Assembly: GCA_963837465.1 (NCBI GenBank)
Contig: CAWINB010000004.1
Location: forward strand, 10,853 to 74,852
DNA length: 64,000 nucleotides
From: Candidatus Doudnabacteria bacterium
GTDB lineage: Bacteria > Patescibacteriota > Doudnabacteria > UBA920
Direction: 5' to 3'
In this document: positions 7,755-57,423 of the stretch, piece by piece
Position numbering within the stretch: the stretch's first letter is position 1
Layout: each line of letters opens with the position of its first letter
Notes under the pieces: model-generated
Database searches by the model: none
What the model was told of the DNA's origin: nothing
What the model saw: only the letters and a program-made list of their open reading frames with translations
Program-made: the position numbers and the translations under genes

Positions 7755-7756
7755 CA

Positions 7757-41049: not shown

Positions 41050-41146
41050 CTAACGGTTAGGATAAGTGGTTTTTCCGCCGGAGGCGGACCCGCCTCCGGC
41101 GGGCATCCACTAAACCTGGGGTTCGATTCTCCGTACCGCTACCAAG
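41050..41146 (+). pseudogene. partial duplicate of tRNA-Glu (D-loop to 3' end) carrying a 30-nt palindromic insertion in the anticodon loop; probable att-site remnant
   Basis: TAACGGTTAGGATAAGTGG-TTTTT-[CCGCCGGAGGCGGACCCGCCTCCGGCGG]-GCAT-CCACT...GGTTCGATTCTCCGTACCGCTACCA. The 5' acceptor strand is absent. T-arm diverged from the intact copy 17 nt upstream. Confidence 0.65.
41074..41103. repeat. 30-nt GC-rich palindromic element, copy 1 (in pseudo-tRNA)
   Basis: TCCGCCGGAGGCGGACCCGCCTCCGGCGGG. 28/30 identical to copy 2 at 57030-57059. Confidence 0.8.
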
Positions 41147-42630
41147 ACCAAACTTTCAGACAATTTAGATTTATTTTCCAGGGCTGCCTTAAGGGCAGCC
41201 CATTGTGTCTGCGGGACAAATTCAATTTTTTGATTTTTTAAAAACAGGTTCGAACCGAAAATTTTTTGTGCAGCCGATTTTTTGGGGTGCAGTTCGGGCG
41301 AAAGCGTTATTTCGCCCAATTTTTCTGCGTCTTTGAGCCATTGCGTCAGGGGTTCAAACCAGGCAGCCCGCTTTTGTTCAAGACGAGCTATTTGCTCCTC
41401 CAAAGACTTCTTTTCCAAGACCAGGCCATTCTTCTGTTCCCGGTAGTTATCCCTCTCAATATCCTGGTCTAAATACATATCCTGAAGTCTTTGGAGCCTG
41501 TGGTCAATGTCCCCAATTTTTGACCGCAGCTCTTGAACAAAAGCCGCCGTGGATTGTGTTGATTCCTGCCGTTTTTTCTCGGCCATAATTAACAATTTTT
41601 CTGCCCAATCTTTGGGCATGACAAATTGCTTTAAAGTTTCTGAAAGCTTGCTGATTAATACCTCGTCCCTGACAAACGGCTGGGAGCAAACAACATTTCT
41701 TTTAGTGCAATGGTAATAGACATAACGGTGGATATTGCCATTTTTTTGTTGTTTAGTCCTTTGCTCGGCCGTAACCCCACGGCCGCATTCGCCACAGTGG
41801 AATAAACCACAGAGTAGCTGGGGATTATTTTTAGTTTCCTTATGCGGCCGACCCCGATAGGCTAAAACCTCTTGGACTTTATCAAACAATTGTTTGCTAA
41901 CAATCGGCTCGTGCTTACCTTGGTATAATTCTCCGCCAAAACGGAATAAGCCACAGTAGATAGGATTAGACAAAAGGTAGGAAATTTTATCCCGTTTGAA
42001 AAGCTTATTGCCTCTAGAAATTAATCCATGACTTTTAAAAAATTCCCCTATATCCTCCAAACGGGATTGATCTTTGGCGTACAGCTCGAAAGCGGCCTTA
42101 ACAATTAGGGTTTTTCTTTGGTCAATAGCTATTTTTTTAGTTCTTAAATCATTAATGTAGCCAATGGGAGCAAGTCCCGGATATTCGCCCCGTTTGGCTT
42201 TTTCGTGCATGCCACGTTTAGTGTTTGCGCTTAAGTCACGTACGTATTGGTTAGCTATTCCAAACTCCATTTGCATCATTAAAACATTATCAGCCGAGTA
42301 ATAGCTTTTATCATGGGTTTGAATGTGCTGGATTATACCCTCTTGCAACATCCAGCTAATTTGGGCGGCATCCACAGGATTGCGGGCTAACCTGTCCAGC
42401 TTCCAGCAAACTATGCCTTGAGCTTCACCTTTGTTAATGCGGACAAGCATATCAGTAAATACAGGGCGACCTGGTCTTTTGGCCGACTGTTTTTCAACAA
42501 ATTCGGAGGCAATATTTAAGCCCTGTTCTTTTGTTAAGGCCCTCAAAACAGCAAGCTGATCTTCAATAGACCGGACTTGCTTGTCTTCTACATCTGTGGA
42601 TTTACGGGCGTAGAGGAAATAATTTGGCAT
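41110..42630 (-). CDS. large serine recombinase no. 2
   Basis: Catalytic-Ser motif YARKSTDVEDKQ. Recombinase domain. Zinc ribbon CGLFHCGECG...YYHC. Coiled-coil. The last ~37 codons lie inside inverted repeat IR1, and the ORF runs into the pseudo-tRNA. Confidence 0.75.
   Translation of the reverse strand: MPNYFLYARKSTDVEDKQVRSIEDQLAVLRALTKEQGLNIASEFVEKQSAKRPGRPVFTDMLVRINKGEAQGIVCWKLDRLARNPVDAAQISWMLQEGIIQHIQTHDKSYYSADNVLMMQMEFGIANQYVRDLSANTKRGMHEKAKRGEYPGLAPIGYINDLRTKKIAIDQRKTLIVKAAFELYAKDQSRLEDIGEFFKSHGLISRGNKLFKRDKISYLLSNPIYCGLFRFGGELYQGKHEPIVSKQLFDKVQEVLAYRGRPHKETKNNPQLLCGLFHCGECGRGVTAEQRTKQQKNGNIHRYVYYHCTKRNVVCSQPFVRDEVLISKLSETLKQFVMPKDWAEKLLIMAEKKRQESTQSTAAFVQELRSKIGDIDHRLQRLQDMYLDQDIERDNYREQKNGLVLEKKSLEEQIARLEQKRAAWFEPLTQWLKDAEKLGEITLSPELHPKKSAAQKIFGSNLFLKNQKIEFVPQTQWAALKAALENKSKLSESLVLVAVRRIEPQV
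41140..41252. repeat. inverted repeat IR1, left copy (113 bp)
   Basis: taccaagaccaaactttcagacaattt...aaaaacaggttcg. Reverse-complement identical to 44463-44575. Confidence 0.85.
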
Positions 42631-42854
42631 AAATTTTACTCTTAAAAATTAAAGGGGCAGTCCTGGCTACCCAGCTCCACCAAAACGAGTTTGGATTTGC
42701 TGGCAGGACTGCCACCTCAATAGCAAAAGGGCAAAATAAAATCGCTTTGGGATATAGAACTGGGTAGCAAGGATATTATACCATATATAAAATTTTCAGC
42801 AATTATTTCAGTTAGTTTTTGGCAATTTCGTCCTAAAAAGAGTAAAATTTTAGC

Positions 42855-44375
42855 ATGAGTCTTTACGATAACTATAAACCACTAAGAAATAACCTAAGAC
42901 GGCTTGAACTTTTTGATTCACTGTACGTAATTTGGGCGTACGCCCAACATCTACAATTTGGCAATCCATTCCCAGACAATATTCAAGTATGGAATAAATT
43001 TGTAAATAATGCCACGGAAATGCCACGAGAGACGTACCTATCCCCTTGGGACTTAGAGACTTTAACACGCGAATTAATACTACACGCCCCTATTGGCAAC
43101 AACTTATCAGATAAAAGCTTGCGCAAATGGGATAATTTAGCTAATACAAAAAATAAATTCAGGGAACTAGAGAATCAAATAGGCGCAGAATTTGTGAATA
43201 AAGATAATATATTAATGGAAATGTTTCGAATTGCCCACCGGCAGTTTTTGTGGCAAATTCACCCAAGCCAAATTTATATGTACAGGTACTACAGAATTTT
43301 TGGTTCTGAGGAAATGGGAAAAATTGTAGAAAATAAACTGGGTGTCACTACATACAAATTACACCTCGTTGGTACGGCCCTATTGGGCCATTTTTTGGGA
43401 AGCAATATTTTACGTTACCCAATAAGGGTTGAAATTCCCAGCGTAAACGCTGACATGCTAAAAGAGGTAATAGCCTTAAGTTCTTCCGAATTAGAAAATA
43501 TACGGGAAAAACTTCAGGGAGAATCCACGTTGGATGAAAAATTTTCTTATGCAAATTACGCGTTACGGGCTCACCCACTTATCAAAACTAAAATTCAAGG
43601 TCAGGATGTACTAATTTGCCCATTGCCCACCCTTTTATATTGGCGGTATACTAGCGGGCTTTATTATGAACTTTACAATGAAAACGGGTTTGATAACGCT
43701 TTTGGTGGTTCATTCCAAAACTACGTTGGAGAAGTGCTCAGAAAAGCAAACCCCAACCAACAAGTTATCCCATCAATGAAATTTGATAAGACATCAAAAG
43801 AAACAATTGACTGGATTTTGTCTGAAGACGAATCGGCTTTATTCATTGAATGCAAAATGAAACGGTTGCCTGTTCCGGTCAAGATGGAGTTAAACAACAC
43901 TGGCCCGCTGGATGGACAACTGGACACAATAACAAATATAATTTTGCAAGTTTACAAAACTATTAAGGACTACAAAGAAAATAAATACCCAAATTTTCCA
44001 TACCAAAAAGATAGGGTTATATTCCCTTTAATTTTAACCTTGGAGGACTGGTACTGGTTTCCTGATGTCATAGAGGCAAAATTAAACACCATGCTTGAAG
44101 ACAAATTTAAAGCGAGCGGTATCCCTATAGAATGGCTGGACGAAATACCTTATTCACTTTGCTCAATAAATGAATTTGAGAACATGGCGCAAATTATTAA
44201 CAAAGTAGGTATTAAAAATTTTATGGACAAAAAGCTTACCAATAAAGAAAAGAGGCGCTGGCATTTTGGCCCGTTTATGGTTAAGGAATTTCCAAAAGAA
44301 TATTCTGCCAAAAAATTCTTGTTTGAAAAGGAATTTAACAATGAATTTCCAGTAAAGGGAAGCGATGTAGTCTAA
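42855..44375 (+). CDS. hypothetical 506-aa cytoplasmic protein with PD-(D/E)xK-like motif (candidate nuclease cargo)
   Basis: No signal peptide. The segment IDWILSEDESALFIECKMK fits D-x13-E-x-K spacing of the restriction-endonuclease-like fold. Otherwise unrecognised. Confidence 0.4.
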   Translation: MSLYDNYKPLRNNLRRLELFDSLYVIWAYAQHLQFGNPFPDNIQVWNKFVNNATEMPRETYLSPWDLETLTRELILHAPIGNNLSDKSLRKWDNLANTKNKFRELENQIGAEFVNKDNILMEMFRIAHRQFLWQIHPSQIYMYRYYRIFGSEEMGKIVENKLGVTTYKLHLVGTALLGHFLGSNILRYPIRVEIPSVNADMLKEVIALSSSELENIREKLQGESTLDEKFSYANYALRAHPLIKTKIQGQDVLICPLPTLLYWRYTSGLYYELYNENGFDNAFGGSFQNYVGEVLRKANPNQQVIPSMKFDKTSKETIDWILSEDESALFIECKMKRLPVPVKMELNNTGPLDGQLDTITNIILQVYKTIKDYKENKYPNFPYQKDRVIFPLILTLEDWYWFPDVIEAKLNTMLEDKFKASGIPIEWLDEIPYSLCSINEFENMAQIINKVGIKNFMDKKLTNKEKRRWHFGPFMVKEFPKEYSAKKFLFEKEFNNEFPVKGSDVV

Positions 44376-44462
44376 AGCCACGCGGTGGGTTGGGTGGGTC
44401 AAGTGGCTTTGCGTTTTGGTGTTAATTGCGTTCTGCGGCCCCCAAAAAATCTTCCCTGTTCC

Positions 44463-44575
44463 CGAACCTGTTTTTAAAAAATCAAAAAATTGAATTTGTC
44501 CCGCAGACACAATGGGCTGCCCTTAAGGCAGCCCTGGAAAATAAATCTAAATTGTCTGAAAGTTTGGTCTTGGTA
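44463..44575. repeat. inverted repeat IR1, right copy (113 bp)
   Basis: cgaacctgtttttaaaaaatcaaaaaattgaatttgtcccgcagacacaatgggctgcccttaaggcagccctggaaaataaatctaaattgtctgaaagtttggtcttggta. Exact reverse complement of 41140-41252 as far as I can align by eye. Confidence 0.85.
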
Positions 44576-44934
44576 CCTTTATTCGATATTTTACAAACCT
44601 ATTATACCCAAAACAGCTAATTTTGGCCACCCAATTTAGCCTGTTTTAGCTGCCAAAATTAGCCAGCTAGGTGGTAGAACGGGTAGTAGAACAGGGTTCT
44701 ACCACTAAAACTCATAAACCCCTTGATTCTATTGACTCTGTCCCAAACAAAAACCGCGGACTACCTACCACCAGGTAATCAACTGAACGACCAATACTAC
44801 TACTAACTCTAATACTAAAATACCTTAAAAATACTACTCAAAATACATAAATCTTAACCAACTAACTAAACTAATCTAAACCAAAACACAAAAAACATCA
44901 AAACCTAAAAATCAATACAAAAGGGTGTGGGGGG
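44572..44934. repeat. inverted repeat IR2, left copy (~362 bp), contiguous with IR1 right copy
   Basis: ggtacctttattcgatattttacaaacc...aaaagggtgtggggg. Reverse complement of 50620-50981 with at least one mismatch (T/C at ~44676). Confidence 0.8.
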
Positions 44935-45015
44935 TTATACGTCTAAAACCCCAAGGAAACAAAAAAGGATTGTTAAATTAGCGCCAAACGATTTATCATC
45001 AACATAGAAAAAACT

Positions 45016-45036
45016 ATCCATTGCTGGATAGTTTTT
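45016..45036 (-). terminator. hairpin CTATCCA-ttgc-TGGATAG with A-run/T-run flanks (bidirectional)
   Basis: Perfect 7-bp stem, 40 nt 3' of the giant gene stop. Confidence 0.5.
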
Positions 45037-45072
45037 TCTTACGCGCTCAAGCGAGACGTTTTTATTCTTTTG

Positions 45073-48000
45073 TTATCTTAAGTTGTTAATAAAACTTCTG
45101 GTTAGAGTGTCTAGTGCCCCATTATCGGCCTTAATCCCAATTTGCGTTTTGTACTTGTTTTGGAAACTCTTTAAAGCTGCTTTAGTCGCAAGGCCAAACA
45201 AAGTAGTTTCGTGTCCAGGAGAACCAATTGCTCCATTTGGGGCAACAGCGAAGTTATTATTGTTTAAGAACTGCTGCAAAGCCGTAACGTCCACCCCTTT
45301 GCTTAAGTAGCCAAGGTTTCGGGTAAAGATTATGGTGGCAGGAATGAGGCCAGTAGATTGGTTAGTTGCGGCCGGAGCTGGACTGGACAGAGCGGTTTGG
45401 CCCAGGACCTGGCTGGCTGTTTCTGACTCTATGGTATACGGGGCTTTGGAGCCTCTTAGTACAGTTAATTTCTCCCCACTTTGGCTTTGATATTGCTGGA
45501 AGCTCAAGAAAGTATCAAAAGGATATAAGCCATTAGGCTTAACCAGGTAGATAGTCGGGTTGCCTTTAAACTGTAATAGCTGGCCATCGTGGACATTGTA
45601 TGGTAGGACTACGGTAACAGAGGGTGATATATTGGTTGTTGGTGGAGTTGGTAATATTAGGTATGGAATGGATGTCGGAGTCGAAGTTGGCGATGGTGCC
45701 ACAGTTCCTGCCAAGGTCAGGGTGGTGAATGTATAATCTCCGGAAACATTAAACTGTAAGTTAGGGTCTTTAACCCTAAAATGGTACAAAGTGGCCGGGT
45801 TTAGGCTGGTTAAGATAAGGCTATGGCTTGTTGCGGGTGTAGAACTAGAAACAGTTGAACCGTAAGAGGAGGTTGTGCCATAGTCTACAGAGGAGCCAAT
45901 TTGATAATTGGTTTGCCAGGACACAATTATTGAAGTAGGTGTTGTATTGGAAACCTGGACGTTGCTGAAACTGGCATAAATAGCACCTCCGCCTCCGCCG
46001 GAACTCACTACATTCGTGGAGCAGGATACGGACACATTGGTAATGTTAGATGAGGCTACCGTACCGCTGCCATTAGTTACGTTACAGGTTTGGCCTGATG
46101 GCTGAGTTAAAACCGTAACATTGTATGTGCCGCCGGTGCTGGTGGCTGTGGCGAAAATAAAGCTAGTATTAGTTGTAGTGCTTATATTATTTCCGCCATT
46201 ATTCTGTAAAACAACAGTCCCAGTTAAGCCAGAAATATTACCGCCAATTGTGTAGGTAGGATTATTGGAACACGAAACTGAAACGTTGCTCACGTTCGCG
46301 GAAGATACTGTGCCACTACCATTGGTGACACTACAGGTTTGACCGCTAGGCTGGGTCAAAACAGTTACAGAATAACTGGCACTATTGTTTAAAGCTGTGG
46401 CAAAAATAAATGAGCCATTGGTGGAAGTGCTGTAGTTATCTCCCCCGTTATCCTGGAGGACCACGGTGCCGGACAGGCCAGAAATGGTGCCACCGATGGT
46501 GTAGGTTGTAGAAGAAGATTGATAAGCGCCAATATCGGGGGATGAACTGTAAAGGACTTGAGTACCGCTAGAATTTTTATAGAGATAAACCGGATTTCCC
46601 GAAGACCTAGTTATTGGACTAGCCAATGTTATAACATTGGTTGAATAATTAATTGAGGAGATTTGTACTGTAGTGGCTGAGCCTACCCTAATCCAGTCGG
46701 CATTTACTATCCCTGAACCATCGGAAAAGAACCCGGCGTCATTAACAACCAACGAAGTTCCAGAGCCTGTGTCAGAGTTCGCTACTGTTGTAAGGTAAGT
46801 TCCAGCGCCGCGGGCTGGGGAAGAATTTTGCAGTTGAAAATTCCCTGATGGTGGAGTGGCTACGTTTGTCAAAAGTGGATCTTGGTTAAGTACAACTCCT
46901 GATTCTGAAGACAAACTGCTCTGCCATGAGCCAGAATAGCCTTGGTTAAAAACAAGTGTGTTACCACTAATTGTAGGCGAAGAGCTGGCATCAGTTAAAA
47001 TATCATAATATCCATTTACAATATCGTTGTACAGAAGATTATTAAGCCACGCCCCACCGGTAGCTCCTACTCCAGGCATATAGTTCCAAGAAGCTGTATA
47101 GTCTGGTGGTAAGACTGTATTAATAATATCATTATTATAAACTTTTGATTGTGGTATGCCCTGACTAAGTACGAAGTAACCACCGCTTCCATAATAGGTA
47201 TTAAATCTGGTAATTACTCCTGTTGGATTATCAACAGTTGGAGTCTCGGCCTGTAGTAAAGAAAAATGAGTATTGTACTCAGGGGTGTTATACATGACGT
47301 TATTCTCCATCAGCAGATGAATTAATGGCGTCCCTGTAACGTCCCATGTTTGCATTCCGTCAAGATGGGCGGTTGTTGTCGCCGCATATGAATATGTTCC
47401 AGTAGTTCCGGCAAATGGGGTATAAAGAGTCAAGGATGTGCTACTGCTTATTGATAAAATAGAATATACAAGGCTACCAATTGAAATTGCGTATACATTA
47501 CCACCAGCCCAACTGGAATCAAATACTGTTCCCGATGCCCATGTGACTGTAGTGCTGCCATTAGTAACATTCACAGTACCCATGGTTGAAACAAAATCTG
47601 TGCTGGCGCTATCATGCCAAGTATTATTGCGCAACACATCGTAAGAGCCATGAACATGCGTGTAATCTAAAACATGCGAAATATCGTTTGAGTCAATCAA
47701 ATTATAGTTTCCATATACATCAATTCCATATGTACCGGACGCGTTATACCCTGCCCAAGAAATTGTGTTGTTGGAAATTGTACAGTAATTCGAATTATTG
47801 CTTGGGTTATACGGCGATTGGTTAAATCCTACACCAAATCCTCCGGTATAGCTTATAATATTATTGCTGACAATGACGTGTGATGCGGCGATAAGCTGTA
47901 CACCTCTCAACCCAGCCGCATTATGATTACCAATATAAAATCCTTGAATTGCAATATAATTTTGGCCTGACACTACAAAAGCATTAACTAGCACGGTGTC

Positions 48001-50040
48001 TCCGGTATGGGCTTGAAAAACAATAGGGTTACCCGAAATACCCGAGGCAGGAACACTGACTGTCTCTGAATATGTGCCCGCGTAAACCGTGCAGGTGTCT
48101 CCTGCTAAAGCAGCATTCGCACACGCCTGAATTGTTGTAAAATCACCTCCACCGGCTGATTTAACAGCGTACATAATGCCGCTTGGGGTTGCCTGACTTT
48201 GCATTGTATAGGCAGCCTTGTTGCCAGCCTCATCTTTGACCACAACATTAAAGTAATAGGTCGTAGATGGATACAAACCTGTCACGTTGAATGTGCTGAT
48301 GTTTTGGGTAAACGACTGAATAATACTACCATTTGTTTCGGCATTAGCTACTGTACTAATGTTACTACTGGTAGATTCAATAACTTCATACTGGAGGTTG
48401 GCTTGCAGCGAAACATTGTCCGTAGCCGCTGTCCAGTTAAGAGTAAGGCTGTGAGCCGCGACACTAGCTGCGCTGATTGCCCCGCTACTGCCCGGGACAG
48501 GTGGGGTGGTATCTGGCGCAGTAGTGGTAAAGGTTAAGTCCGTAGATGTAGCAACGTTACCCGAAGAATCAGAAGAAGCTACCTGAAAATGATAAAGGGT
48601 ACTTGTAGCCAGGCCAGTTAAAGTTATGGAGTGAGAAGTCACAAATGAGGCCGATGATGAAGCTGTTCCGTAACCGGAGGTTAGCCCATAATTAACTGTA
48701 GATGTTGCGCTTTCGTCAGTAGTCCAAGTTATAATGGCAGTAGTTTGAGTTGTTGATGAGGCTATAGAAGAAATTACGGGAGGGGTGACGTCGGCGCTTG
48801 TTTGACCGATGTAAGACAAAAGCATACGAGTAGATTGCGGCGTACTGGAAGGAGTGACTTGAGTATCATACAATGCTCCATTTGTGGGAGTAAATGAGCC
48901 TGAGGCCGATCCAGTAGTTGTCGCTGCGCCGGATATGCTAATTGGAAAAGTGGTTGAAGCATTGCCACCGTTCTCGCGCAATACAGTGGCCCAAGATTTA
49001 GTGTTACCTGGGGCACCAATAACTTTGGCATAAAGACCTACTAGGTTGTAGTCGGACCAGCCAAGTGTTTGTGTTTGAGTTTCAGTGGCTGAAATTGTGT
49101 TTGTGCCTGATAATCCTAAGTAATTAACAGCCGAATTTGAAGGCGTAGTATTGGCGATGGGAATGATAAAATCCCCGGTGGTGTTTGGAACGAAAACTAA
49201 ACCAAAAGCTCCTTGAGCAGAAGTAGGGGTACCGGAGGCTGTTTGGACAATATCTATAAGATCGCCTGGTACGACCGACACATTATCACCGGAATTTGTG
49301 TCCGAGAGAACGCCAGTACTGGCGGCATTAAATGTCGTAGCTAAAGTTGTGGTCGCTCCATTTTTTCTCAGAGCAAAAGACTCGCCATTACCAGAGCCAG
49401 GAGCAGCGGATAAGTAAGTGTATAAATGTTCCAAAGTCCCGGTCGCCGGAACTACAATTTGAACATTGCCCTCTGTCGCACTACCTGCAACACCTACTAA
49501 ACCATAGTATGTCGTGCTTGTAGCAAAATTTCCGCCTGTTCCTGACATAAGCACGGTCTCGCCAGCAGTTGTCGGAAGGAAATCCAACATGAACGAAACG
49601 CGCGCACCAGTAGCAGGAGTTCCACTTGGTGTAACTGAGACCGAGACTCGGTTACCGGCTGTAATGTTCACAGTGTCGTTTGTATCGGAACAACTTGTTG
49701 CCAAATCACTTATCGTGCAAGTTAAAGCCGTATTTGCAAGTTCATCGCGAAAAGTTATAACATAAGATTTGCCGGTACCTGGAGCAGTGTCAAGTTGCAC
49801 ACGTAATTTCTGTACAGTTCCGCTAGACGGAGCAATCTGATAAGCATTGATTTCAGCGTTCTGCGGGGGAAGAGCCCCAAAAGGAGAAAAATAGCGAACT
49901 GCTCCGGTACTAGTCTGGCCATCATATGACCCAAACCATTTAGACGGCAAACTGGCTGCCGAGGCTTTACCGACAAAGCTAAAAGCACACACCACAAAAA
50001 ATGCCAGTAAGGTTAATTTGTTGTTTAAAAATTTAGTCAT
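45073..50040 (-). CDS. giant (1655 aa) secreted surface protein: FN3 domains, right-handed beta-helix region, tandem ~80-aa repeats, C-terminal repeat module and peptidoglycan-binding (PG_binding_1-like) domain
   Basis: Signal peptide MTKFLNNKLTLLAFFVVCAFSFVGKASA. FN3-like IITWTTDESATSTVNYG...LYHFQV and IIVSWQTNYQIGSSVDYG...LYHFRV. Beta-helix repeats NNIISYTGGFGVGFN...ISNNTISWAG...IDSNDISH. Duplicated YTIGG.ISGL.GTVVLQ.NGG.N.ST.TN.SFIFATA modules. C-terminal LQQFLNNNNFAVAPNGAIGSPGHETTLFGLATKAALKSFQ. Confidence 0.65.
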   Translation of the reverse strand: MTKFLNNKLTLLAFFVVCAFSFVGKASAASLPSKWFGSYDGQTSTGAVRYFSPFGALPPQNAEINAYQIAPSSGTVQKLRVQLDTAPGTGKSYVITFRDELANTALTCTISDLATSCSDTNDTVNITAGNRVSVSVTPSGTPATGARVSFMLDFLPTTAGETVLMSGTGGNFATSTTYYGLVGVAGSATEGNVQIVVPATGTLEHLYTYLSAAPGSGNGESFALRKNGATTTLATTFNAASTGVLSDTNSGDNVSVVPGDLIDIVQTASGTPTSAQGAFGLVFVPNTTGDFIIPIANTTPSNSAVNYLGLSGTNTISATETQTQTLGWSDYNLVGLYAKVIGAPGNTKSWATVLRENGGNASTTFPISISGAATTTGSASGSFTPTNGALYDTQVTPSSTPQSTRMLLSYIGQTSADVTPPVISSIASSTTQTTAIITWTTDESATSTVNYGLTSGYGTASSSASFVTSHSITLTGLATSTLYHFQVASSDSSGNVATSTDLTFTTTAPDTTPPVPGSSGAISAASVAAHSLTLNWTAATDNVSLQANLQYEVIESTSSNISTVANAETNGSIIQSFTQNISTFNVTGLYPSTTYYFNVVVKDEAGNKAAYTMQSQATPSGIMYAVKSAGGGDFTTIQACANAALAGDTCTVYAGTYSETVSVPASGISGNPIVFQAHTGDTVLVNAFVVSGQNYIAIQGFYIGNHNAAGLRGVQLIAASHVIVSNNIISYTGGFGVGFNQSPYNPSNNSNYCTISNNTISWAGYNASGTYGIDVYGNYNLIDSNDISHVLDYTHVHGSYDVLRNNTWHDSASTDFVSTMGTVNVTNGSTTVTWASGTVFDSSWAGGNVYAISIGSLVYSILSISSSTSLTLYTPFAGTTGTYSYAATTTAHLDGMQTWDVTGTPLIHLLMENNVMYNTPEYNTHFSLLQAETPTVDNPTGVITRFNTYYGSGGYFVLSQGIPQSKVYNNDIINTVLPPDYTASWNYMPGVGATGGAWLNNLLYNDIVNGYYDILTDASSSPTISGNTLVFNQGYSGSWQSSLSSESGVVLNQDPLLTNVATPPSGNFQLQNSSPARGAGTYLTTVANSDTGSGTSLVVNDAGFFSDGSGIVNADWIRVGSATTVQISSINYSTNVITLASPITRSSGNPVYLYKNSSGTQVLYSSSPDIGAYQSSSTTYTIGGTISGLSGTVVLQDNGGDNYSTSTNGSFIFATALNNSASYSVTVLTQPSGQTCSVTNGSGTVSSANVSNVSVSCSNNPTYTIGGNISGLTGTVVLQNNGGNNISTTTNTSFIFATATSTGGTYNVTVLTQPSGQTCNVTNGSGTVASSNITNVSVSCSTNVVSSGGGGGAIYASFSNVQVSNTTPTSIIVSWQTNYQIGSSVDYGTTSSYGSTVSSSTPATSHSLILTSLNPATLYHFRVKDPNLQFNVSGDYTFTTLTLAGTVAPSPTSTPTSIPYLILPTPPTTNISPSVTVVLPYNVHDGQLLQFKGNPTIYLVKPNGLYPFDTFLSFQQYQSQSGEKLTVLRGSKAPYTIESETASQVLGQTALSSPAPAATNQSTGLIPATIIFTRNLGYLSKGVDVTALQQFLNNNNFAVAPNGAIGSPGHETTLFGLATKAALKSFQNKYKTQIGIKADNGALDTLTRSFINNLR

Positions 50041-50175: not shown

Positions 50176-50478
50176 TTAGTTTTTTTCTGGTAGCCGCCGT
50201 AAGGCTTGGGATGTAATTTCTTCTAGGGTGTCGGCCGGTACTGGCTTGCCAAGTATTCTTTCAGCTAGTTCCAGCATTTTGTTTAAACTTGGTTGACTTT
50301 TAAATTTATTCGCTATAATTTCCTGAGCGCCTTCTTGGGCAGGGGTTTTATCCTCAGCAGTTATTCTGGATAGATGAAGCATTGTGACATAGGCGGATAA
50401 AAGTCTTGCACATTCTTCCAGATAAGCCTGGTTATCTTCCGGCCTGCGAACCAATTCTAGCCTCTTAGGATAATCCAT
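50176..50478 (-). CDS. hypothetical 100-aa protein, co-oriented upstream of the giant gene
   Basis: Intact helical-looking ORF (MDYPKRLELVRRPEDNQAYLEE...). No known motif. Confidence 0.3.
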   Translation of the reverse strand: MDYPKRLELVRRPEDNQAYLEECARLLSAYVTMLHLSRITAEDKTPAQEGAQEIIANKFKSQPSLNKMLELAERILGKPVPADTLEEITSQALRRLPEKN

Positions 50479-50619
50479 AATTACTACAACTATTTATACA
50501 AATATTATACTATAGTTTACGATTAAAGACCAGCATTTAATAGCTAAGGGTATTATGGTATAGTGTTTTGGTAATTTGGTCAGTATTTTTGGTCTTTGTT
50601 TCCTGTTTTCTGTCTTCCA

Positions 50620-50981
50620 CCCCCACACCCTTTTGTATTGATTTTTAGGTTTTGATGTTTTTTGTGTTTTGGTTTAGATTAGTTTAGTTAGTTGGTTAAG
50701 ATTTATGTATTTTGAGTAGTATTTTTAAGGTATTTTAGTATTAGAGTTAGTAGTAGTATTGGTCGTTCAGTTGATTACCTGGTGGTAGGTAGTCCGCGGT
50801 TTTTGTTTGGGACAGAGTCAATAGAATCAAGGGGTTTATGAGTTTTAGTGGTAGAACCCTGTTCTGCTACCCGTTCTACCACCTAGCTGGCTAATTTTGG
50901 CAGCTAAAACAGGCTAAATTGGGTGGCCAAAATTAGCTGTTTTGGGTATAATAGGTTTGTAAAATATCGAATAAAGGTACC
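50620..50981. repeat. inverted repeat IR2, right copy (~362 bp)
   Basis: cccccacacccttttgtattgatttttagg...ggtttgtaaaatatcgaataaaggtacc. Reverse complement of 44572-44934. Confidence 0.8.
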
Positions 50982-51336
50982 AAAAAAAATGCCTATAAAT
51001 TAAAAATACCGGACTCATTCCGGTATTTTTAATTACCCGGGCAACAACCTTTGGGTCAAAATCAATAATCCATTGAATACCGCATTTGTCTCTAAACATT
51101 CCAAGATATAAAATTTAAAGGTTCCTATAAAATTTAAAGGTTCCTGACACCTTTGAATTCCTCCTTACATGAATGGTTGTCAGCCGTGCCAGAATTAGCA
51201 AATTGTATTCTTTTAAAAAATAAACAGCGTCCATGGATTAGTAAAAATAATTTGCCGAATGATAACTTCGACAAAATTTTTACAGAATAGCTAGTTGGGG
51301 GCAGTTATTATAAAAACCAATTTTTTATAGAGCGAC

Positions 51337-51594
51337 TCACTCCTCTCCTAATAATTTTTCTAATTCAGAAACTATATCCTCAATTAGATCGCTATCAGAC
51401 CGTTTAGCTAGCCTGTCTGCCAAAGTAGGGCTATATTTAGCCATATCGTCTTTTGTAATATTGTGCCAAACAGGTAATACTACTTTTCTGCCATTTCTCT
51501 CTTGAGCAACCAAGCCATTTAACTCATATTCTGTCCATTGTTTCTTTGTCAAAAAAGCTTTAGAAAAAACGACAATCCCATAAGTAGAATTTTT
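51337..51594 (-). pseudogene. 3' fragment of a TIR-domain-like protein gene
   Basis: VVLPVWHNITKDDMAKYSPTLADRLAK resembles the conserved C-terminal half of TIR domains. The ORF opens only 14 codons upstream of a TTG and lacks the N-terminal half. Confidence 0.3.
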
Positions 51595-51717
51595 TCAACC
51601 ACTGTGCACTGGAAGTGCACAGACTGGTCGCCGACTGGAAGTCGAGAACAGCGAAGGAATTATCTATTATTTTTTACTGAAGTGACCGCCTGAAGGCGTG
51701 GGAACTCACCGCCCCAA

Positions 51718-51903
51718 ATGGAGGCCTTAGAAGGTCAAGGCATTATGCATATAGATTCAGAATCAGCTCCAGTCCATCCTGGGCAGGCAATTTATATTCC
51801 ACCAAGCTCCAAACGATATATTGAAAATAACGGTAAGGCTGATTTAAAATTTTTATGTATTGTCGACCCTGCATGGAGAGTTGAGGATGAAGAGGTGCTT
51901 TAA
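51718..51903 (+). pseudogene. cupin-barrel fragment
   Basis: GQAIYIPPSSKRYIENNGKADLKFLCIV is a typical cupin_2 C-terminal strand pattern. Only 61 aa. Confidence 0.3.
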
Positions 51904-51960
51904 CCCAAAGTAGACTGGAAAACCTTTCCAGCTTAAAAATAACAGTTTTCCAAAAGCACC

Positions 51961-53379
51961 TTGCTCAAGCAAATAAATCTGGAAAACTTTTTTGTTTTAA
52001 ATATAACCAAATTGGAGTATAATATAAAAAACTCATGTTTTATGAACAAACTTTTTTCTCAAAACCCAACTGCTGAAAGCCAAAATTCAGATCAGTCTAT
52101 TAAGAAACCCATGATTCCTTGGGCCATATTGATTTTAGTAGTTTTGGCAGTAATTGGTTCCTTTGTTTACATACAGGGTAGAACAAACCCAAATCAAAGT
52201 AACAAAATTGCAAACAAAAATATTTTCCAAAATAATACAACTGAGAAAAATTCCTCCGCCAATATTTCCAAAAATAAGGAATTCAGCCCCACAAAGGTAT
52301 TAGTGACCACCGACTCAGAAATAGCACTTTATGACATACTGGCTCAAAAAATAATTGCTTCCACAACTGAGCCAAATGCTTTTTCTAACGTAGCCGGATC
52401 CAGTGCCGCAATACAATATAATGATAAAACCGGAGATATTTTTTATTTTATTGCAGGCGGTGTGGACTATGATGGAACATGTGATCCCGGCGGCACTTGT
52501 ACCAACGGATTATATAAGACAAATATTTATACCCATAAAACAAGTTTTTTATGGCGGACAGCGGATTGGCCGCCAAGCCAATGGGTTATTGATACAAATA
52601 ATAACTCAGTACTTGTTGGATTTGGGTTAGGCAGCAACCTTGAATCTACCAGCACCGTACGATCAATCTTAGATATTATGAAAATTGATGCCGAGAATGG
52701 GGCAACTTCAACAATTTTTAGCCAAACCTTTCCCGGTAATACTGGGTTTGGAAGTTTCGCTTTATCAAACGATGGCACGAAACTGTATATGACGGCTATA
52801 CAAGATTTTTTTAATCCACGGAGTCCCACCGAATTAAGCGCCAATTATTTAGATTTAACAAGTAATAAACTTTACGGGTTGGCTAAAATCACGGCTTCGT
52901 CTTTAAATGATATCCTCGATATGTCTGCGTCATATTATTCCTACGACGACAAATACCTACTTTATTTTAATAATAGTATTAACCCTATTATTTTAGATAT
53001 TAACAATTTAAAGAATATCCCAATCAATGGCATACCATACGCTGATTTGCTTAACGCCAGTTTTGTATGGGCTACTGACAATGCCGGATTATATTATAGC
53101 AATGATACTGTAATTTCTGGCGACAAACAGATGCGTTATTATTCCTTGGCGACTCAAAGCAGCTCAACTTTAGCATTTCTTCCACCCTATCAAACAGAAC
53201 CCATTGCGGCATCGGACAAATATTTGTTTTACACAGCATATGTGTCGGCGAAGACAAATGGAACTCATTATAATGAATGGGAAACAAAGGGTTATGATTT
53301 AGCCAATAACAGAGATCTTGATTTATCAAATTTTCCCATGTCGACCGATCCGCCAGGAATCACTTTTGTAAATGATTAA
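51961..53379 (+). CDS. hypothetical membrane-anchored extracellular protein, very AT-rich (possibly beta-propeller)
   Basis: TM helix IPWAILILVVLAVIGSFVYI. Repeated beta-rich segments. Composition much lower in GC than the surrounding genes. Confidence 0.4.
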   Translation: MLKQINLENFFVLNITKLEYNIKNSCFMNKLFSQNPTAESQNSDQSIKKPMIPWAILILVVLAVIGSFVYIQGRTNPNQSNKIANKNIFQNNTTEKNSSANISKNKEFSPTKVLVTTDSEIALYDILAQKIIASTTEPNAFSNVAGSSAAIQYNDKTGDIFYFIAGGVDYDGTCDPGGTCTNGLYKTNIYTHKTSFLWRTADWPPSQWVIDTNNNSVLVGFGLGSNLESTSTVRSILDIMKIDAENGATSTIFSQTFPGNTGFGSFALSNDGTKLYMTAIQDFFNPRSPTELSANYLDLTSNKLYGLAKITASSLNDILDMSASYYSYDDKYLLYFNNSINPIILDINNLKNIPINGIPYADLLNASFVWATDNAGLYYSNDTVISGDKQMRYYSLATQSSSTLAFLPPYQTEPIAASDKYLFYTAYVSAKTNGTHYNEWETKGYDLANNRDLDLSNFPMSTDPPGITFVND

Positions 53380-53460
53380 CATGGGCAAGTTTTGTGATTT
53401 AAGCATTCGCCATAGAAGAATGTAAAATTAGGGGGTTATTTAGTGAATTATAAATCTCCC

Positions 53461-53922
53461 TTACAAGAGCCAAATAAGTTTTCCACCTGTCTCGAGGTGC
53501 GCTACCAAATTAGATTTTTTTCCTCCGTACTCCTTGTTTATCTTATAGACTTGCGGTAATTTGGCGGTTCCAAACTTCTTACCGTCAAACTTTATTTTTT
53601 CTTTGAATATCATTTTCTGGAAACGTAATCGTGCAGGATAATCAGCTTCATTCCACGTTTTTGCTGTGGTTCTAACATACTCAAAACAATAGCTTAAAGA
53701 TTCCTCCATATTAAACTCTTCAACCCTGCTCTCTTGCACGAGCAGGCGTTTTGCGCCTATGGCAGAATTTATTTTATTTTTCTGGTCTAAAAATTCTTCA
53801 TCTGAATATTTACCGCTTCTATGAAAATCAAAAACTTTTTGTCGTTCCTGTTCCAGCTTGGTGGTGTTTTTGTTTCTGTCGGCAGCTGTTTTTATTTCTT
53901 TTCTCAGGCAATCGACAGGTTT
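53461..53922 (-). CDS. hypothetical protein (open frame extends upstream of the listed GTG start to a stop at 53923-53925); possible recombinase C-terminal remnant
   Basis: Hand translation shows no stop between 53739 and 53922. Lys/Glu-rich coiled-coil-like N-part. Assignment uncertain. Confidence 0.2.
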   Translation of the reverse strand, partial: KPVDCLRKEIKTAADRNKNTTKLEQERQKVFDFHRSGKYSDEEFLDQKNKINSAIGAKRLLVQESRVEEFNMEESLSYCFEYVRTTAKTWNEADYPARLRFQKMIFKEKIKFDGKKFGTAKLPQVYKINKEYGGKKSNLVAHLETGGKLIWLL

Positions 53923-54058
53923 TTATTCTCAAATCAGGCTTCTGTTTACACAATTGAGCCGTATAGTGTAAAATATAATCTCCTCGGTTAGTTCCTGTCT
54001 TGCGGGATGGCCCAAGTTGTGTTGTTAATAAAATAATAATTAATAATTAGCCTTAAAT

Positions 54059-56590
54059 ATGAGATTTTTTAAAATACTCCTGCCTGTTTTAGCGCTGGCC
54101 TGTTTTGCTTTTGGCGCCGCTCCACGGCTTGCCCAGGCCGCCGGTACCTTAAATTTTGATGTAGAGGGCCCGTCCGGGACAATATATAACAACAGTATTG
54201 ACCCGTCCGCAATCTCCCCCTGCGCCACGCCGGATAACGCGACTTCCACCGTAAATGGATACTGCCTGTTTGCCGCCGCGGGACTTAGCAATGTAAACGC
54301 GACATCAACGGCTTCCGGTTTGCAGATAACCTCCGTTAACGGCATTAGCGGCAACTGGCAGTGGTTTTTAAACGGCAGTTTCCAGGCAGGCAGCATTGAA
54401 AGCTACACTCCTCAGGCAGGCGACAGCATTTTGTGGGCGGAGGGAGTAGAGCCTTTGCAGGTTACCCTGTCAACAACCACTCCGGCGGTTAACGCCAGCA
54501 CTACCGTGACCGTGCTGGGCTTTGCCACCAGCACTTCCGATTTTTTGCCGGTCGCGGGCGCGACCATAGTAGGAACCTCGGCAACCACCAACATTAACGG
54601 CGCCGCGGCCATAGTAGCCACATCCACCAATCCATTGACAATTTCAGTTACTGCTCCCGGGTTTATTTCCAGCCAGCAGTTTACCATTACACCCCAGCCT
54701 GAAAGCATAACACTGATCGTCCGCGATGGCAGCGCTACCGCATTCTCCGGCAGTGTCAATTTACCCGACCAAAGCTCTCCGGATATTATGGTTACGCCTG
54801 CCAACAGCACCAGCAGTATAGCGGTTTCTCCCCGCAGCGTGCTGGGTATCCTGGAAGCAACTGAAGCATCATCCACTGGTTTTAATATTACAAATCTATC
54901 TTACTCAACCAGCACCAATTCCTTTACCATTAACTGCGTCGCGGTTCCCTCTGCCACCTCCACACCGGACTGTTCCAACTGGACTTACGCCGTTAATGGC
55001 GCTTACCCTCAAACCGGAATCAACCAGCAGCTGCTCAACAATGGCGATATTGTTTACCTTTTCTTTGGCACGCCCCACCAAACCGCGCTGTCTCAAAGTT
55101 CAACAACCGCGGGCCAGCCCTTTACCGCGACCGCGGAACAGTATAACTTAAGCTCCGGAGCCTATCAACCGCTGACCGGGGTAACTTTGGGAATAATAAC
55201 CTTTAACCCCGATTCCTCTTATACCGAACTGGCAACATCCACCGTGGACGCAAGCGGCAACGCGGTGTTTACGCTCAACAACGCGGGAACATACGCGGTC
55301 GGCATTCAGGAAGATTCCTATTCCCCCAGCGCTACCATAACAGTTACCAGCGCCGCGTCGTCCGGCGGCGGAGGCCTTAGCCACAGCACCTTTAACATTC
55401 CAAACGCGTTGAGCTTTATCTCGGCCCAGCAGAATATCAACGGTTCCTTCGGCTCGACTTCCAATACCGACTGGACGGCAATCGCGCTGGCGGCTGTAAA
55501 TCCCGGAGCCGCCAAAACAAAACTCACAAATTATCTGCTCAGCACCACGCCCGCGCTTTCCGGCATTTTAGATTATGAACAGCAAGCCATGGCCTTGGAA
55601 GCCCTGGACATCAACCCTTATTCCGGCACTTCGGTTAATTACATAACCGCCATCACCACCGCGTTTAACGGCGCTCAAATAGGCAGCTCCGGCGACACTG
55701 ACGACATTTTCGCCCTTCTTCCCCTTGAGCACGCGGGCTTTACGTCCGGCGATTTAATTATCCAAAAAGAAGCGGCGTTTGTGCTTTCCACCCAGCAACC
55801 CGATGGCTCATGGGACGAATCTCCGGCTATGACCGCGGCGGCCATACAAGCCTTAGGTCCGCTTTTTGATATTTCCGGCGTTAACAACGCGCTCGGGCAG
55901 GCGGCCGGATATCTGGCGTTCACCGAACTACCCAACGGCGGCTGGGGCAATATAGATTCCACCAGCTGGGTCCAAGCGGCGATTAACGGCATAATCCAGG
56001 CTCAAACTCCCGGCTTTGAAACAGAAACTCCCTGGACTTCCACAGCCGGATACTTACCCACCGATGCCATAGCCAGCGCGCAACAATCCAACGGAGCCAT
56101 CCAGTCCGCAAATCCCCTGTTAAGCACCAGCTATGCCGTAACCGCGGCCTCGGGCCAAAGCTGGGTATCAATTCTAAATTCGTTCCCGCAGCCCAACTCT
56201 CCGGGTTCGGGCGGAGGAGGAGGCAGTTCATCGAGCGGAGAAGTTTTGGGAACCGCGACTTCAACGCCCAGCGTTTTAACGGCTCCGGAAGCGACTACAA
56301 CACCGGCAACCGCCACATCCACCAAAATCGTTACTATCCTGCTGCCGACTTTAACCATAAACCGGGCGACCTCTACAGTAACAACACTTAGGCCAAACAC
56401 AAAATTCCGCGGAAAACCAGGGGCCAAAACAAAAAAACCCTCCCATACCTCGGCCAAAGAAGCAAAGCCGGAAGCCGTCCACCCAACCATATCCCAAGCG
56501 CCGGCCGCGACCATGACATCACCGGAAAATCGAGGCTTCCTCGGACGCACCTGGCACGCAATCACCTCTTTTTTCCACCGCCTGTTTTAA
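54059..56590 (+). CDS. secreted 843-aa protein with DUF4430-like beta domains and prenyltransferase/terpene-cyclase-like alpha/alpha-toroid repeats (transcobalamin-like architecture)
   Basis: Signal peptide MRFFKILLPVLALACFAFGAAPRLAQA. GDSILWAEG and NGDIVYLFFG beta-domain signatures. Repeats QQPDGSWDESPAMTAAAIQAL, ELPNGGWGNIDSTSWVQAAINGI, QQSNGAIQSANPLLSTSYAV. Lys/Pro-rich C-terminal tail. Confidence 0.45.
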   Translation: MRFFKILLPVLALACFAFGAAPRLAQAAGTLNFDVEGPSGTIYNNSIDPSAISPCATPDNATSTVNGYCLFAAAGLSNVNATSTASGLQITSVNGISGNWQWFLNGSFQAGSIESYTPQAGDSILWAEGVEPLQVTLSTTTPAVNASTTVTVLGFATSTSDFLPVAGATIVGTSATTNINGAAAIVATSTNPLTISVTAPGFISSQQFTITPQPESITLIVRDGSATAFSGSVNLPDQSSPDIMVTPANSTSSIAVSPRSVLGILEATEASSTGFNITNLSYSTSTNSFTINCVAVPSATSTPDCSNWTYAVNGAYPQTGINQQLLNNGDIVYLFFGTPHQTALSQSSTTAGQPFTATAEQYNLSSGAYQPLTGVTLGIITFNPDSSYTELATSTVDASGNAVFTLNNAGTYAVGIQEDSYSPSATITVTSAASSGGGGLSHSTFNIPNALSFISAQQNINGSFGSTSNTDWTAIALAAVNPGAAKTKLTNYLLSTTPALSGILDYEQQAMALEALDINPYSGTSVNYITAITTAFNGAQIGSSGDTDDIFALLPLEHAGFTSGDLIIQKEAAFVLSTQQPDGSWDESPAMTAAAIQALGPLFDISGVNNALGQAAGYLAFTELPNGGWGNIDSTSWVQAAINGIIQAQTPGFETETPWTSTAGYLPTDAIASAQQSNGAIQSANPLLSTSYAVTAASGQSWVSILNSFPQPNSPGSGGGGGSSSSGEVLGTATSTPSVLTAPEATTTPATATSTKIVTILLPTLTINRATSTVTTLRPNTKFRGKPGAKTKKPSHTSAKEAKPEAVHPTISQAPAATMTSPENRGFLGRTWHAITSFFHRLF

Positions 56591-56713
56591 CCAACTTACC
56601 GACCTTTAGCGCATGGTTTATTAGAACCTATTCGCAAAATAGATTCTAATCAGATATGTCGCAAAGCCTGCAAAAACCAAGCATTTTCGATCAATATCTC
56701 CATCAACTTAAAT

Positions 56714-56747
56714 CTTAGAGACTGTCTGAAAAGATCCATTTCTGCCG
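56714..56747. repeat. dispersed 34-bp motif copy B (TTAGAGACTGTCTGAAAAGATCCATTTCTGCCGG)
   Basis: 32/34 identical to copy A at 37918-37951. Lies upstream of engB. Confidence 0.7.
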
Positions 56748-56808
56748 GAAATTCTGAAATTTCGCGACGAAAGCGACTTTCCGGACAGCCCTTAAAGGTC
56801 AACAGGAC

Positions 56809-57423
56809 TTGCGCGCAAATCCCGCAACCATGAACATAATATCTGCCAAATTTCTAAAAGGCGTAACCGGGCCGGACGAAAGCCTGGCGGACGGAATCCC
56901 GCAGGTGGCTTTTATCGGGCGTTCCAACGTGGGCAAGTCCAGCGTCATTAACACTTTAGCCAATAAAAAAGGTCTGGCCCGTACCAGTTCAATGCCCGGA
57001 CGCACCCAGGAAATAAATCTATTTTTGGTTTCCGCCGGAGGCGGATCCGCCTCCGGCGGAAATTTTTACCTGGTGGATTTACCGGGCTATGGTTTTGCCA
57101 AAGCCCCCAAAGATTTACAGGAACAAATCCAAAATTTGATTTACTGGTATTTTTTTGCTTCCGGTTACGGGCAAAAAAAAGTTGTCCTGATTATAGACGC
57201 CAACGTTGGCGCGACCAACAACGACATGGAAATGTTATTCAGCCTTAAGCAAGCCGATAAAGACATAATTATCGTGGCCAATAAAATTGATAAAGTAAAA
57301 AAAACCGCTCTTCAAAAACGGTTAAAAGAAATCCAAAATGTCGTCGGAGATTATAAAGTCATCCCCTACTCGGCTGAAAAAAGAACCGGGATAAACGAAC
57401 TGGCCAATGAAATTCTAAAATAA
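56809..57423 (+). CDS. engB: ribosome-biogenesis GTPase EngB/YsxC/YihA with a 10-aa palindrome-encoded insertion
   Basis: G1 VAFIGRSNVGKSS. DLPGYGFAK. NKIDK G4. The SAGGGSASGG insert between the LF and NFYLVDLPGYG segments is absent from typical EngB. Alternative start at 56830. Confidence 0.8.
   Translation: MRANPATMNIISAKFLKGVTGPDESLADGIPQVAFIGRSNVGKSSVINTLANKKGLARTSSMPGRTQEINLFLVSAGGGSASGGNFYLVDLPGYGFAKAPKDLQEQIQNLIYWYFFASGYGQKKVVLIIDANVGATNNDMEMLFSLKQADKDIIIVANKIDKVKKTALQKRLKEIQNVVGDYKVIPYSAEKRTGINELANEILK
57030..57059. repeat. 30-nt perfect palindromic element, copy 2 (in-frame within engB)
   Basis: TCCGCCGGAGGCGGATCCGCCTCCGGCGGA. Self-complementary over all 30 nt, centred on GGATCC. 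Confidence 0.85.

Follow-up and report, generated by a model that had tools for sequence, protein, structure and literature searches.

Small single-domain GIY-YIG enzymes of 94 amino acids (aa), the Ssn nucleases, bind NTS/SRM hairpin repeats and cut only the adjacent single-stranded DNA (ssDNA) (Chenal et al., Nat Commun 2025; PMC11893778). Such repeats adjoin 71% of the ssn genes, and 42% have one on either side; this layout was called insertion sequence (IS)-like and likened to REP/RAYT by the authors, and in Neisseria the NTS/SsnA pair modulates natural transformation (PMC11893778). By analogy, these nucleases with their hairpin repeats appear to be the closest known system to the 30-nt element considered here, which occurs twice in a 64-kb stretch of DNA (the window, i.e., the whole stretch analysed) from a contig of Candidatus Doudnabacteria (CAWINB010000004.1), once in a partial tRNA-Glu gene and once in frame in the protein gene engB. 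On balance, this 30-mer is probably the cognate hairpin repeat of a small GIY-YIG nuclease family, whose cassettes split tRNA genes and whose solo copies are non-autonomous.

The likeness to Ssn concerns the protein, a single-domain GIY-YIG protein of ~80–100 aa (here 79–97 aa, PF01541 only), and the IS-like order, in which the gene is directly flanked by a GC-rich hairpin repeat of 20–50 nt that for Ssn is also scattered in the genome and here probably is too; moreover, repeat sequence and enzyme vary together across lineages in both cases. In contrast to Ssn, the repeat here is a symmetric pair of mini-hairpins with 6-bp stems and 3-nt loops and has no oriented upstream GTC motif, the gene is located in split tRNA genes beside an intact tRNA copy, and the hosts are mainly Patescibacteria.

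An earlier note on this DNA had drawn a parallel with the Rickettsia palindromic elements, which Ogata and colleagues are said to have described in 2000 as units of ~100–150 bp restricted to Rickettsia, and for which we know of no agreed mobilising enzyme. As regards behaviour the parallel is apt: both kinds insert in frame in protein genes and are also found in RNA genes (tRNA genes here). At the same time, the 30-nt unit, its identical core over many phyla and its associated nuclease gene set the present element apart, and this small single-domain GIY-YIG nuclease, which the earlier reading had overlooked, points to the Ssn/hairpin-repeat systems as the nearest kind. REP and REPIN sequences with RAYT (IS200/IS605-related) are short hairpins, often inverted doublets, that flank one domesticated nuclease or transposase gene and disperse via ssDNA without target duplication. 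The gene here encodes a GIY-YIG protein and not a Y1 HUH enzyme, the element carries no 5′ GTAG, and its copies are mostly intragenic, whereas REPs are extragenic.

Mitochondrial double-hairpin elements, reportedly described by Paquin and colleagues in 2000, and the GC clusters of yeast mitochondria, for which the coding gene var1 is a further site, have no dedicated nuclease to our knowledge; they also differ from the present element in being organellar and of greater or variable length, and the yeast clusters have AG target duplications. Both are GC-rich mini-elements of AT-rich compact genomes, located between genes and in one rRNA gene, with stems more conserved than loops and mobility deduced from presence/absence comparisons (PMC10085805, PMC4478555). 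T4 SegB is a free-standing GIY-YIG homing endonuclease encoded in a tRNA gene region, whose inheritance it promotes (PMC2330249); in contrast to the proteins considered here it is a multi-domain phage enzyme, and it is not known to have an associated dispersed hairpin repeat. A published account of group I introns in Patescibacteria tRNA genes mentions neither GIY-YIG proteins nor hairpins.

A double mini-hairpin, an adjacent nuclease gene and split tRNA genes

The copy in engB, TCCGCCGGAGGCGGATCCGCCTCCGGCGGA, is self-complementary across all 30 nt, as the earlier note had claimed, although its position is 57031–57060 and not 57030–57059; the complementary arms of this copy reach 17 nt (57029–57062). 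It consists of TCCGCC-GGA-GGCGGA followed by TCCGCC-TCC-GGCGGA. The second copy (41074–41103) is located between positions 35 and 36 of the tRNA and is a mixed variant, in which a T..A unit, TCCGCCGGAGGCGGA, precedes a C..G unit, CCCGCCTCCGGCGGG. It differs from the first by two mismatches (the centre AC and the last base G), and its 28/30 identity and its location in the tRNA-Glu anticodon loop agree with the earlier description. According to 100 dinucleotide-preserving shuffles, 0 matches with ≤3 mismatches are expected, and the 64-kb window contains no degenerate or further double mini-hairpins of this type besides these two copies.

An exact scan for the 28-nt core CCGCCGGAGGCGGNNCCGCCTCCGGCGG, with one genome per species and with counts that are lower bounds, revealed at least 115 genome loci with at least 119 copies from about 80 assemblies. 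An independent scan of metagenome contigs gave at least 120 contigs, with 107 distinct sites among the matches listed. The search for further copies proposed in the note thus gave many loci, and the element is not confined to two places. By record title, most of the genome loci listed belong to Patescibacteria (candidate phyla radiation), with Saccharibacteria, Kaiserbacteria, Doudnabacteria, Adlerbacteria, Falkowbacteria, Harrisonbacteria, Nomurabacteria, Niyogibacteria, Campbellbacteria and Paceibacteria among the titles; the others listed are Omnitrophota, Kiritimatiellia, Verrucomicrobiota, Lentisphaeria, Planctomycetia, Elusimicrobia, Dehalococcoidia, Bacteroidetes and two proteobacterial metagenome-assembled genomes (MAGs). 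Two actinomycete matches with atypical centres in GC-rich coding DNA look like chance. Several MAGs have five to six element loci among the matches listed, compared to two copies in the window. The exact pattern had 0 matches in 2.9 million viral contigs, and GenBank phages gave only chance partial matches; a viral origin was rejected.

In the Omnitrophota MAG BS750m-G21, the element was also seen at the apex of long palindromes of the form (CAGGTTT)n–element–(AAACCTG)n (L004 2424, L030 4543, L040 2152 and L075 1657). Other long inverted flanks surround it in L048 and L099, and such flanks suggest a larger composite element.

The earlier note had taken the 30-nt palindrome as the unit, whereas covariation supports two tandem 15-mers, N-CCGCC-GGA-GGCGG-N′ and N-CCGCC-TCC-GGCGG-N′, in which position 1 covaries with 15 and position 16 with 30. 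Among the matches listed, the end pairs were T..A/T..A in 76, C..G/T..A in 18, T..A/C..G in 10 and C..G/C..G in 1; the AC-centre and GT-centre forms are one mixed variant read from opposite strands. For 42 distinct variants, picked solely by a Hamming distance of ≤7 from the canonical 30-mer and compared with 500 shuffles, the two-mini-hairpin model gave 95.4% paired cells, 34 double-change cells where the shuffles had 7.9, and a covariation score of 0.212, compared with 0.074, with 0/500 shuffles reaching any of these values. The single long hairpin remained at the level of the shuffles (87.9% paired against 87.5%, reached in 124/500; 8 double-change cells against 7.5) and is ruled out on covariation as the conserved structure. 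Additionally, stem variants such as TCAGCC/GGCTGA, TCGGCC/GGCCGA and TCCTCC/GGAGGA arise independently in either unit. As ssDNA, the perfect copy has the long hairpin as its thermodynamic optimum (−21.2 kcal/mol against 2 × −5.9 kcal/mol for the mini-hairpins), so the canonical form can adopt both folds, of which evolution preserves the two small ones. These comparisons show that the conserved unit is a pair of adjacent 6-bp mini-hairpins with 3-nt loops.

Many copies are located in or beside tRNA genes, mostly in the anticodon loop, between positions 35|36 or, in tRNA-Lys, 36|37; others occupy the D or T loop of a partial tRNA that adjoins the intact gene. Elements in the T loop (GTT|CAA) or D loop of such partial tRNAs were noted at L074 6440, L081 1418, L020 4107, L093 4010 and L131 1424, and some of these fragments hold single mini-hairpins (CCGCCAAAGGCGG).

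A small open reading frame (ORF) whose sole Pfam match is GIY-YIG lies a few bases beyond the element in loci L112, L095, L091, L093, L017, L053 and L114. The encoded proteins match PF01541 over nearly their full length (E 1e-8 to 1e-18) and have no match in NCBIfam. Their best solved relatives are the UPF0213 proteins EF2693 and BH0048; a review puts UPF0213 with Slx1, YhbQ and YazA and mentions neither tRNA nor Patescibacteria. All seven GIY-YIG ORFs in ~0.85 Mb of genome element loci are located 7–124 nt from an element, and all four in the metagenome element loci at ≤185 nt. No plasmid relatives of the nuclease were found by tblastn at E 1e-6.

The order of the cassette is [tRNA-X positions 1–35]–element–[a few nt from position 36 on]–GIY-YIG–[intact tRNA-X with the same anticodon]. 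The loci L091, L112 and L114 extend it by a spacer that ends in a mimic of the 5′ strand of the anticodon stem, by another element and by the 3′ part displaced from the split tRNA, so that in them the GIY-YIG gene has elements on both sides. Since an intact tRNA of the same anticodon is part of the cassette, the tRNA gene is split and an intact copy is nevertheless retained. At 5997–6327 in L114, from a Kiritimatiellae MAG, the unit [element + tRNA-Leu 3′ part + spacer] forms a 301-bp tandem repeat with a scaffold gap inside; either the duplication is real or the repeat has disturbed the assembly.

The association also holds when the protein is the starting point. The GIY-YIG homologues P0128, P0142, P0147 and P0149 were traced to their contigs (loci L123, L127, L129/L130 and L131), and in 4/4 cases a double mini-hairpin was found in a tRNA 5′ fragment 9–30 nt upstream of the start codon, with stems that differ between loci and are internally compensated: TCCGCC-GAA-GGCGGA + TCCTCC-TCC-GGAGGA; TCCTCC-GGA-GGAGGA + CCCTCC-TTT-GGAGGG; TCCTCC-GTA-GGAGGA + TCCGCC-(34 nt)-GGCGGA; and CCACCC-TAC-GGGTGG + CGCCC-GCA-GGGCG. 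The 34 nt in the second loop at L129/L130 (~1430–1485) form an extra hairpin (TCCGCC-...ggtcgcaagcgacc...-GGCGGA).

The same cassettes could be viewed as scars of break repair or homing: a free-standing GIY-YIG homing endonuclease would cut T-rich/A-rich sites, including tRNA loops, and the 30-mer would be copied in by templated repair or gene conversion. GIY-YIG enzymes of homing systems carry a DNA-binding domain, whereas proteins of 79–97 aa offer the catalytic domain only. The inserted unit is, moreover, always exactly 30 nt with sharp ends, and no co-conversion tracts flank it in protein genes; conservation of the stems points to recognition of the repeat and not of the empty site. Nevertheless, duplicated tRNA segments around the cassettes are what co-conversion or illegitimate repair would give, and the near-perfect state of old copies fits continuing conversion among copies. 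A GIY-YIG homing endonuclease within a tRNA gene cluster is exemplified by SegB (PMC2330249), and for the GC clusters of yeast mitochondria, which are the closest analogue in organelles, cut-and-paste is not a sufficient explanation (PMC4478555). We regard homing as unlikely, although it survives this comparison better than the other alternatives.

Insertion sites, reading frames and the engB copy

Among the genome matches listed, T was found at −2 in 92/117 copies (G never) and A at +2 in 94/117, and the matches listed from the metagenome replicated this preference (80/107 and 83/107, respectively). T is also favoured at −1 and A at +1. The flanks show neither −1/+1 complementarity, as a palindromic 4-bp target would give, nor duplication, and no target-site duplication is present at the tRNA, engB or PcrA sites. 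For want of such a duplication at these three sites and of a −1/+1 repeat in the flanks, a DDE-type miniature inverted-repeat transposable element (MITE) was rejected.

The 30-mer has no stop codon in any frame on direct reading. From the genome matches listed, 91 copies lie within ORFs of ≥150 aa, and their frames are distributed very unequally: 68 encode S/P-AGGGSASGG, 12 PPEADPPPA and 11 RRRRIRLRR, with a chi-square of ~70 against equal thirds by our own arithmetic. The metagenome replicate gave 70, 7 and 5, and thus ~75–85% of the ORF-embedded copies use the S/P-AGGGSASGG frame. Several copies in the RRRRIRLRR frame lie close to ORF 5′ ends. The hosts are housekeeping genes, including those for ClpB, DnaG primase, a class II aminoacyl-tRNA synthetase, RecG and UvrD/PcrA. 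The survey of the family therefore bears out the view of the earlier note that the element is dispersed, inserts precisely and in frame in protein genes, and enters tRNA genes as well.

A Kaiserbacteria PcrA/UvrD gives a case of precise insertion besides engB: the 10-codon insert is present in P0156 and in its 87% relative and missing from 41/44 aligned homologues, and in one more, P0175, this site holds 10 aa that look unrelated. In L037, a RecG-like ORF contains a perfect insert (SAGGGSASGG) and, elsewhere, a decayed one (EGGSASGG), from which it follows that multiple hits in one gene occur. In the Falkowbacteria locus L076, two copies (649 and 5292) lie between direct CGAAAAT heptamer repeats in ORFs of 517 and 1004 aa, in the PPEADPPPA frame.

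The engB copy could be followed through its orthologues. This gene (engB/ysxC, 56830–57423, + strand) encodes a ribosome-biogenesis GTPase, and the ORF confirms that the element contributes exactly SAGGGSASGG (residues 68–77) between INLFLV and NFYLVDLPGYG with the reading frame intact; the protein stretch across the insert reads ..FLVSAGGGSASGGNFY.. Alignment of orthologues agrees that typical EngB is without the insert: distant orthologues and some close ones (P0020, 77% identity) read ..FLIN-NSFYLVDLPGYG. The insert had been expected to be lineage-specific, and it is indeed confined to a subclade of Doudnabacteria-like orthologues, but it is not private to this genome, since relatives have it at exactly the same point in various stages of decay. 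On comparison of the DNA, the site is empty in L121 (ATA|AAT AAC), L116 has the 30-mer with a single loop change (TCT), and L117 has TCCGCC-AAA-GGCGGA with a perfect second unit in the junction ATT|element|AAT. In L118 and L119, the first hairpin is retained with an AAA loop and the second unit is decayed or deleted. Empty and filled orthologous sites together indicate an insertion that was precise and ancestral to the subclade.

Between the window, L116 and L117, the 30-mers vary at just one or two of 30 positions (29/30 and 28/30 identical), whereas the remainder of engB is 71–72% identical and its third codon positions ~51%, so the nucleotide sequence of the element itself is constrained or homogenised. 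Stems are kept and loops vary (GGA to AAA); the engB copy is an old insertion with maintained stems. In the AlphaFold model of EngB (mean predicted local distance difference test score, pLDDT, 89.6), strands 62–70 and 78–83 form a β-hairpin with the insert at its tip, where residues 73–75 have pLDDT <50; the insert is thus predicted to occupy a tolerant surface position. The engB stop codon lies within a 28-nt perfect inverted repeat (57406–57433/57440–57467) that is AT-rich around a GC core and resembles a bidirectional terminator.

Stem conservation of this kind raises the question of whether the 30-mer is a functional motif maintained by the host and no longer mobile, for example a signal for ssDNA uptake or recombination or an RNA/DNA structural signal, which spread anciently and then descended vertically. 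The engB stems, conserved well beyond the expectation for synonymous sites beside variable loops, would fit such a role, as would the fact that the engB and PcrA insertions are each common to related lineages; the modulation of natural transformation by NTS/SsnA in Neisseria provides a precedent (PMC11893778). On the other hand, an identical 28-mer over many phyla at non-orthologous sites needs repeated insertion, and many of the orthologous copies have begun to decay or have lost a part (P0018, P0008 and P0003), which speaks against a site-specific function in engB. A host-maintained motif is therefore, in our estimation, slightly less credible even than homing.

Proposed spread of the element

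The nuclease–repeat relationship preferred here would operate as follows. On ssDNA, each strand of the element would fold as two adjacent 6-bp mini-hairpins, which the nuclease would recognise; as the element is symmetric, the enzyme could act at both borders and on both strands. Solo 30-mers would be non-autonomous, REP- or MITE-like copies, placed in trans by the nuclease and host repair at T-N|N-A without target duplication. Placement in trans is proposed because a whole cassette in engB or dnaG would be lethal; for the same reason, an origin of solo copies as leftovers of cassette deletion was judged unlikely. In these genomes nearly everything is coding, and as the unit is 3n long and stop-free, copies would persist inside genes. 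Persistence would be mainly in the frame that gives a flexible Gly/Ser/Ala loop, the frame bias reflecting selection, and the near-perfect state of old copies may reflect either hairpin constraint or conversion between copies.

A number of points weigh against this scheme. Cleavage of ssDNA, transposition and mobilisation in trans are activities that we infer for the nuclease, and GIY-YIG nucleases form no covalent intermediate, so that strand transfer would need host functions. The nuclease gene accompanies only ~5% of the element loci listed and is present in the 64-kb window only as a remnant. No same-species presence/absence polymorphism was found, and the engB insertion is old and not recent, so that it does not speak for current mobility in this genome. 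As for the link to Ssn, the degenerate search sequence for the SRM (HGTCWY..RNCYNB) was found in 0/121 elements with 25-nt flanks, and ~3/4 of the copies lie inside ORFs, in frame, as opposed to 2% for NTS; the likeness consists in size, domain, flanking and, probably, dispersal, so that an assignment to the Ssn clade (cd10448) would be by analogy.

Taken further, the data allow the tentative suggestion of a new class of prokaryotic mobile DNA, in which a minimal GIY-YIG nuclease might move a 30-nt double hairpin, possibly the smallest non-autonomous element known, via ssDNA, targeting tRNA loops with an intact copy kept and having left Gly/Ser/Ala loops in essential proteins of Patescibacteria and of several further phyla; we consider this broader claim possible but doubtful. 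No description of the element was found in the literature, its half-site string occurring only in one unrelated yeast paper of 1989, and the coding-frame insertions across phyla, the double-hairpin architecture and the tRNA-splitting cassettes appear to be undescribed.

If the preferred reading is true, hundreds of essential proteins of candidate phyla contain a loop of 10 residues left behind by a selfish DNA hairpin and not an adaptation, which would matter when these proteomes are annotated, aligned or used for structure prediction, and when split or pseudo tRNA genes have to be recognised. To the pairing of Ssn nucleases with repeats it would add a new repeat architecture as well as coding DNA and tRNA-gene cassettes as locations, and the proteins would be candidate ssDNA nucleases with a defined symmetric 15-nt hairpin target. 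Additionally, as the core is identical across phyla, it might serve to trace gene flow between ultrasmall episymbionts and other bacteria of groundwater.

The tRNA-Glu locus of the window and its surroundings

The tRNA-Glu locus of the window can be compared with L112, a Doudnabacteria MAG with an almost identical tRNA-Glu. On the + strand of the window, a remnant of the GIY-YIG gene comprising the C-terminal 33 codons and stop, IYAETFPDKTSARKREIFLKKSFKARENILKNL* (40842–40943; tblastn E = 1e-10, 70% identity to the L112 nuclease), is followed by an intact tRNA-Glu(TTC) at 40958–41032, in the place of the cassette-borne intact tRNA of related loci. After a 17-nt spacer, in agreement with the distance given in the earlier note, comes a 24-nt copy of tRNA-Glu positions ~12–35 (41050–41073), identical to the intact gene and forming the inner flank of the element. 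On the other side of the element lies a displaced and diverged native tRNA-Glu 3′ part (positions 36–76 + CCA; 41104–41144), for which L112 has a homologous junction. The element is located between TTTT and CAT; removal of the 30 nt gives the loop TTTTCAT exactly, with no target duplication. The fold of the element-bearing copy keeps the AGTGG/CCACT stem, i.e., the 24-nt inner flank mimics the tRNA and the anticodon stem closes around the element.

In L112 the cassette is complete, in the order split tRNA-Glu with element, GIY-YIG, second tRNA-Glu, spacer, degenerate element and CATCCACTAAATCGGGG..., so that the layout in the window corresponds to the right half with a decayed nuclease gene; its left junction is no longer recognisable. 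Thus, the tRNA copy in the window, earlier regarded as a spare tRNA-Glu duplicate that had received an insertion, is, given the GIY-YIG remnant and the L112 homologue, the right-hand junction left by a GIY-YIG + tRNA cassette that had split the native tRNA-Glu and has since decayed. The exact tRNA-Glu/element junction had no match in metagenome contigs.

A tRNA with an intron (group I or bulge-helix-bulge) was also considered and fails: ARAGORN with introns allowed does not call the element-bearing copy, since its 5′ acceptor strand is missing, and Rfam finds the intact tRNA only.

Immediately downstream, at 41113–42630 (− strand), is the gene of a large serine recombinase with Resolvase, Recombinase and zinc-ribbon domains, whose 3′ end overlaps the displaced tRNA 3′ part. 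A second such neighbour is a Resolvase-domain ORF directly downstream of the GIY-YIG/tRNA-Glu cassette of L128 (1784–3240, − strand). The palindrome in the tRNA copy might be the attachment (att) site of this recombinase, and the partial tRNA an att junction; serine-integrase att sites are imperfect palindromes around a central dinucleotide. Besides the recombinase domains, the overlap and the L128 ORF, which favour this possibility, one has to consider that phmmer found a window-like recombinase at none of the other element or nuclease loci, a search that divergent recombinases may escape, as the L128 ORF did. Furthermore, L112, which has a GIY-YIG gene but lacks a recombinase, shares the junction of the window (5′ mimic–element–CATCCACTAAA...), and solo in-frame copies such as that in engB would go unexplained. 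An att site is accordingly very improbable, and the recombinase is treated as a separate element that landed beside the tRNA locus.

An artefact, a synthetic linker or adapter or an assembler chimera as feared in the earlier note, has next to no probability: the 30-mer does resemble an engineered Gly-Ser linker with a BamHI site (central GGATCC) and all data are short-read metagenome assemblies, but the copies come from many studies, assemblers and independent assemblies, with compensatory stem variants, frame bias, target preference, orthologous copies at differing decay stages and steady adjacency to one gene family. For quality-control pipelines this is a warning that resemblance to a synthetic GGATCC Gly-Ser linker does not by itself make a sequence an artefact.

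Beyond the recombinase, a 506-aa ORF without a Pfam match (42855–44375, + strand) is followed by a ~64-aa fragment (44426–44617, + strand) that resembles the recombinase and is located on the other strand; the three together may be a small integrated element beside the tRNA locus. A 1655-aa ORF (45073–50040, − strand), whose sole Pfam matches are fibronectin-III/purple-acid-phosphatase-N-like domains near the C-terminus, probably encodes a large surface protein. Elsewhere in the window, a 22-nt perfect inverted repeat with a 1-nt gap was noted at 7755–7776/7778–7799 (CAAAAAAGGATTCCCCTAGTGC/GCACTAGGGGAATCCTTTTTTG), and a related 13-nt pair is located at 7071–7100.

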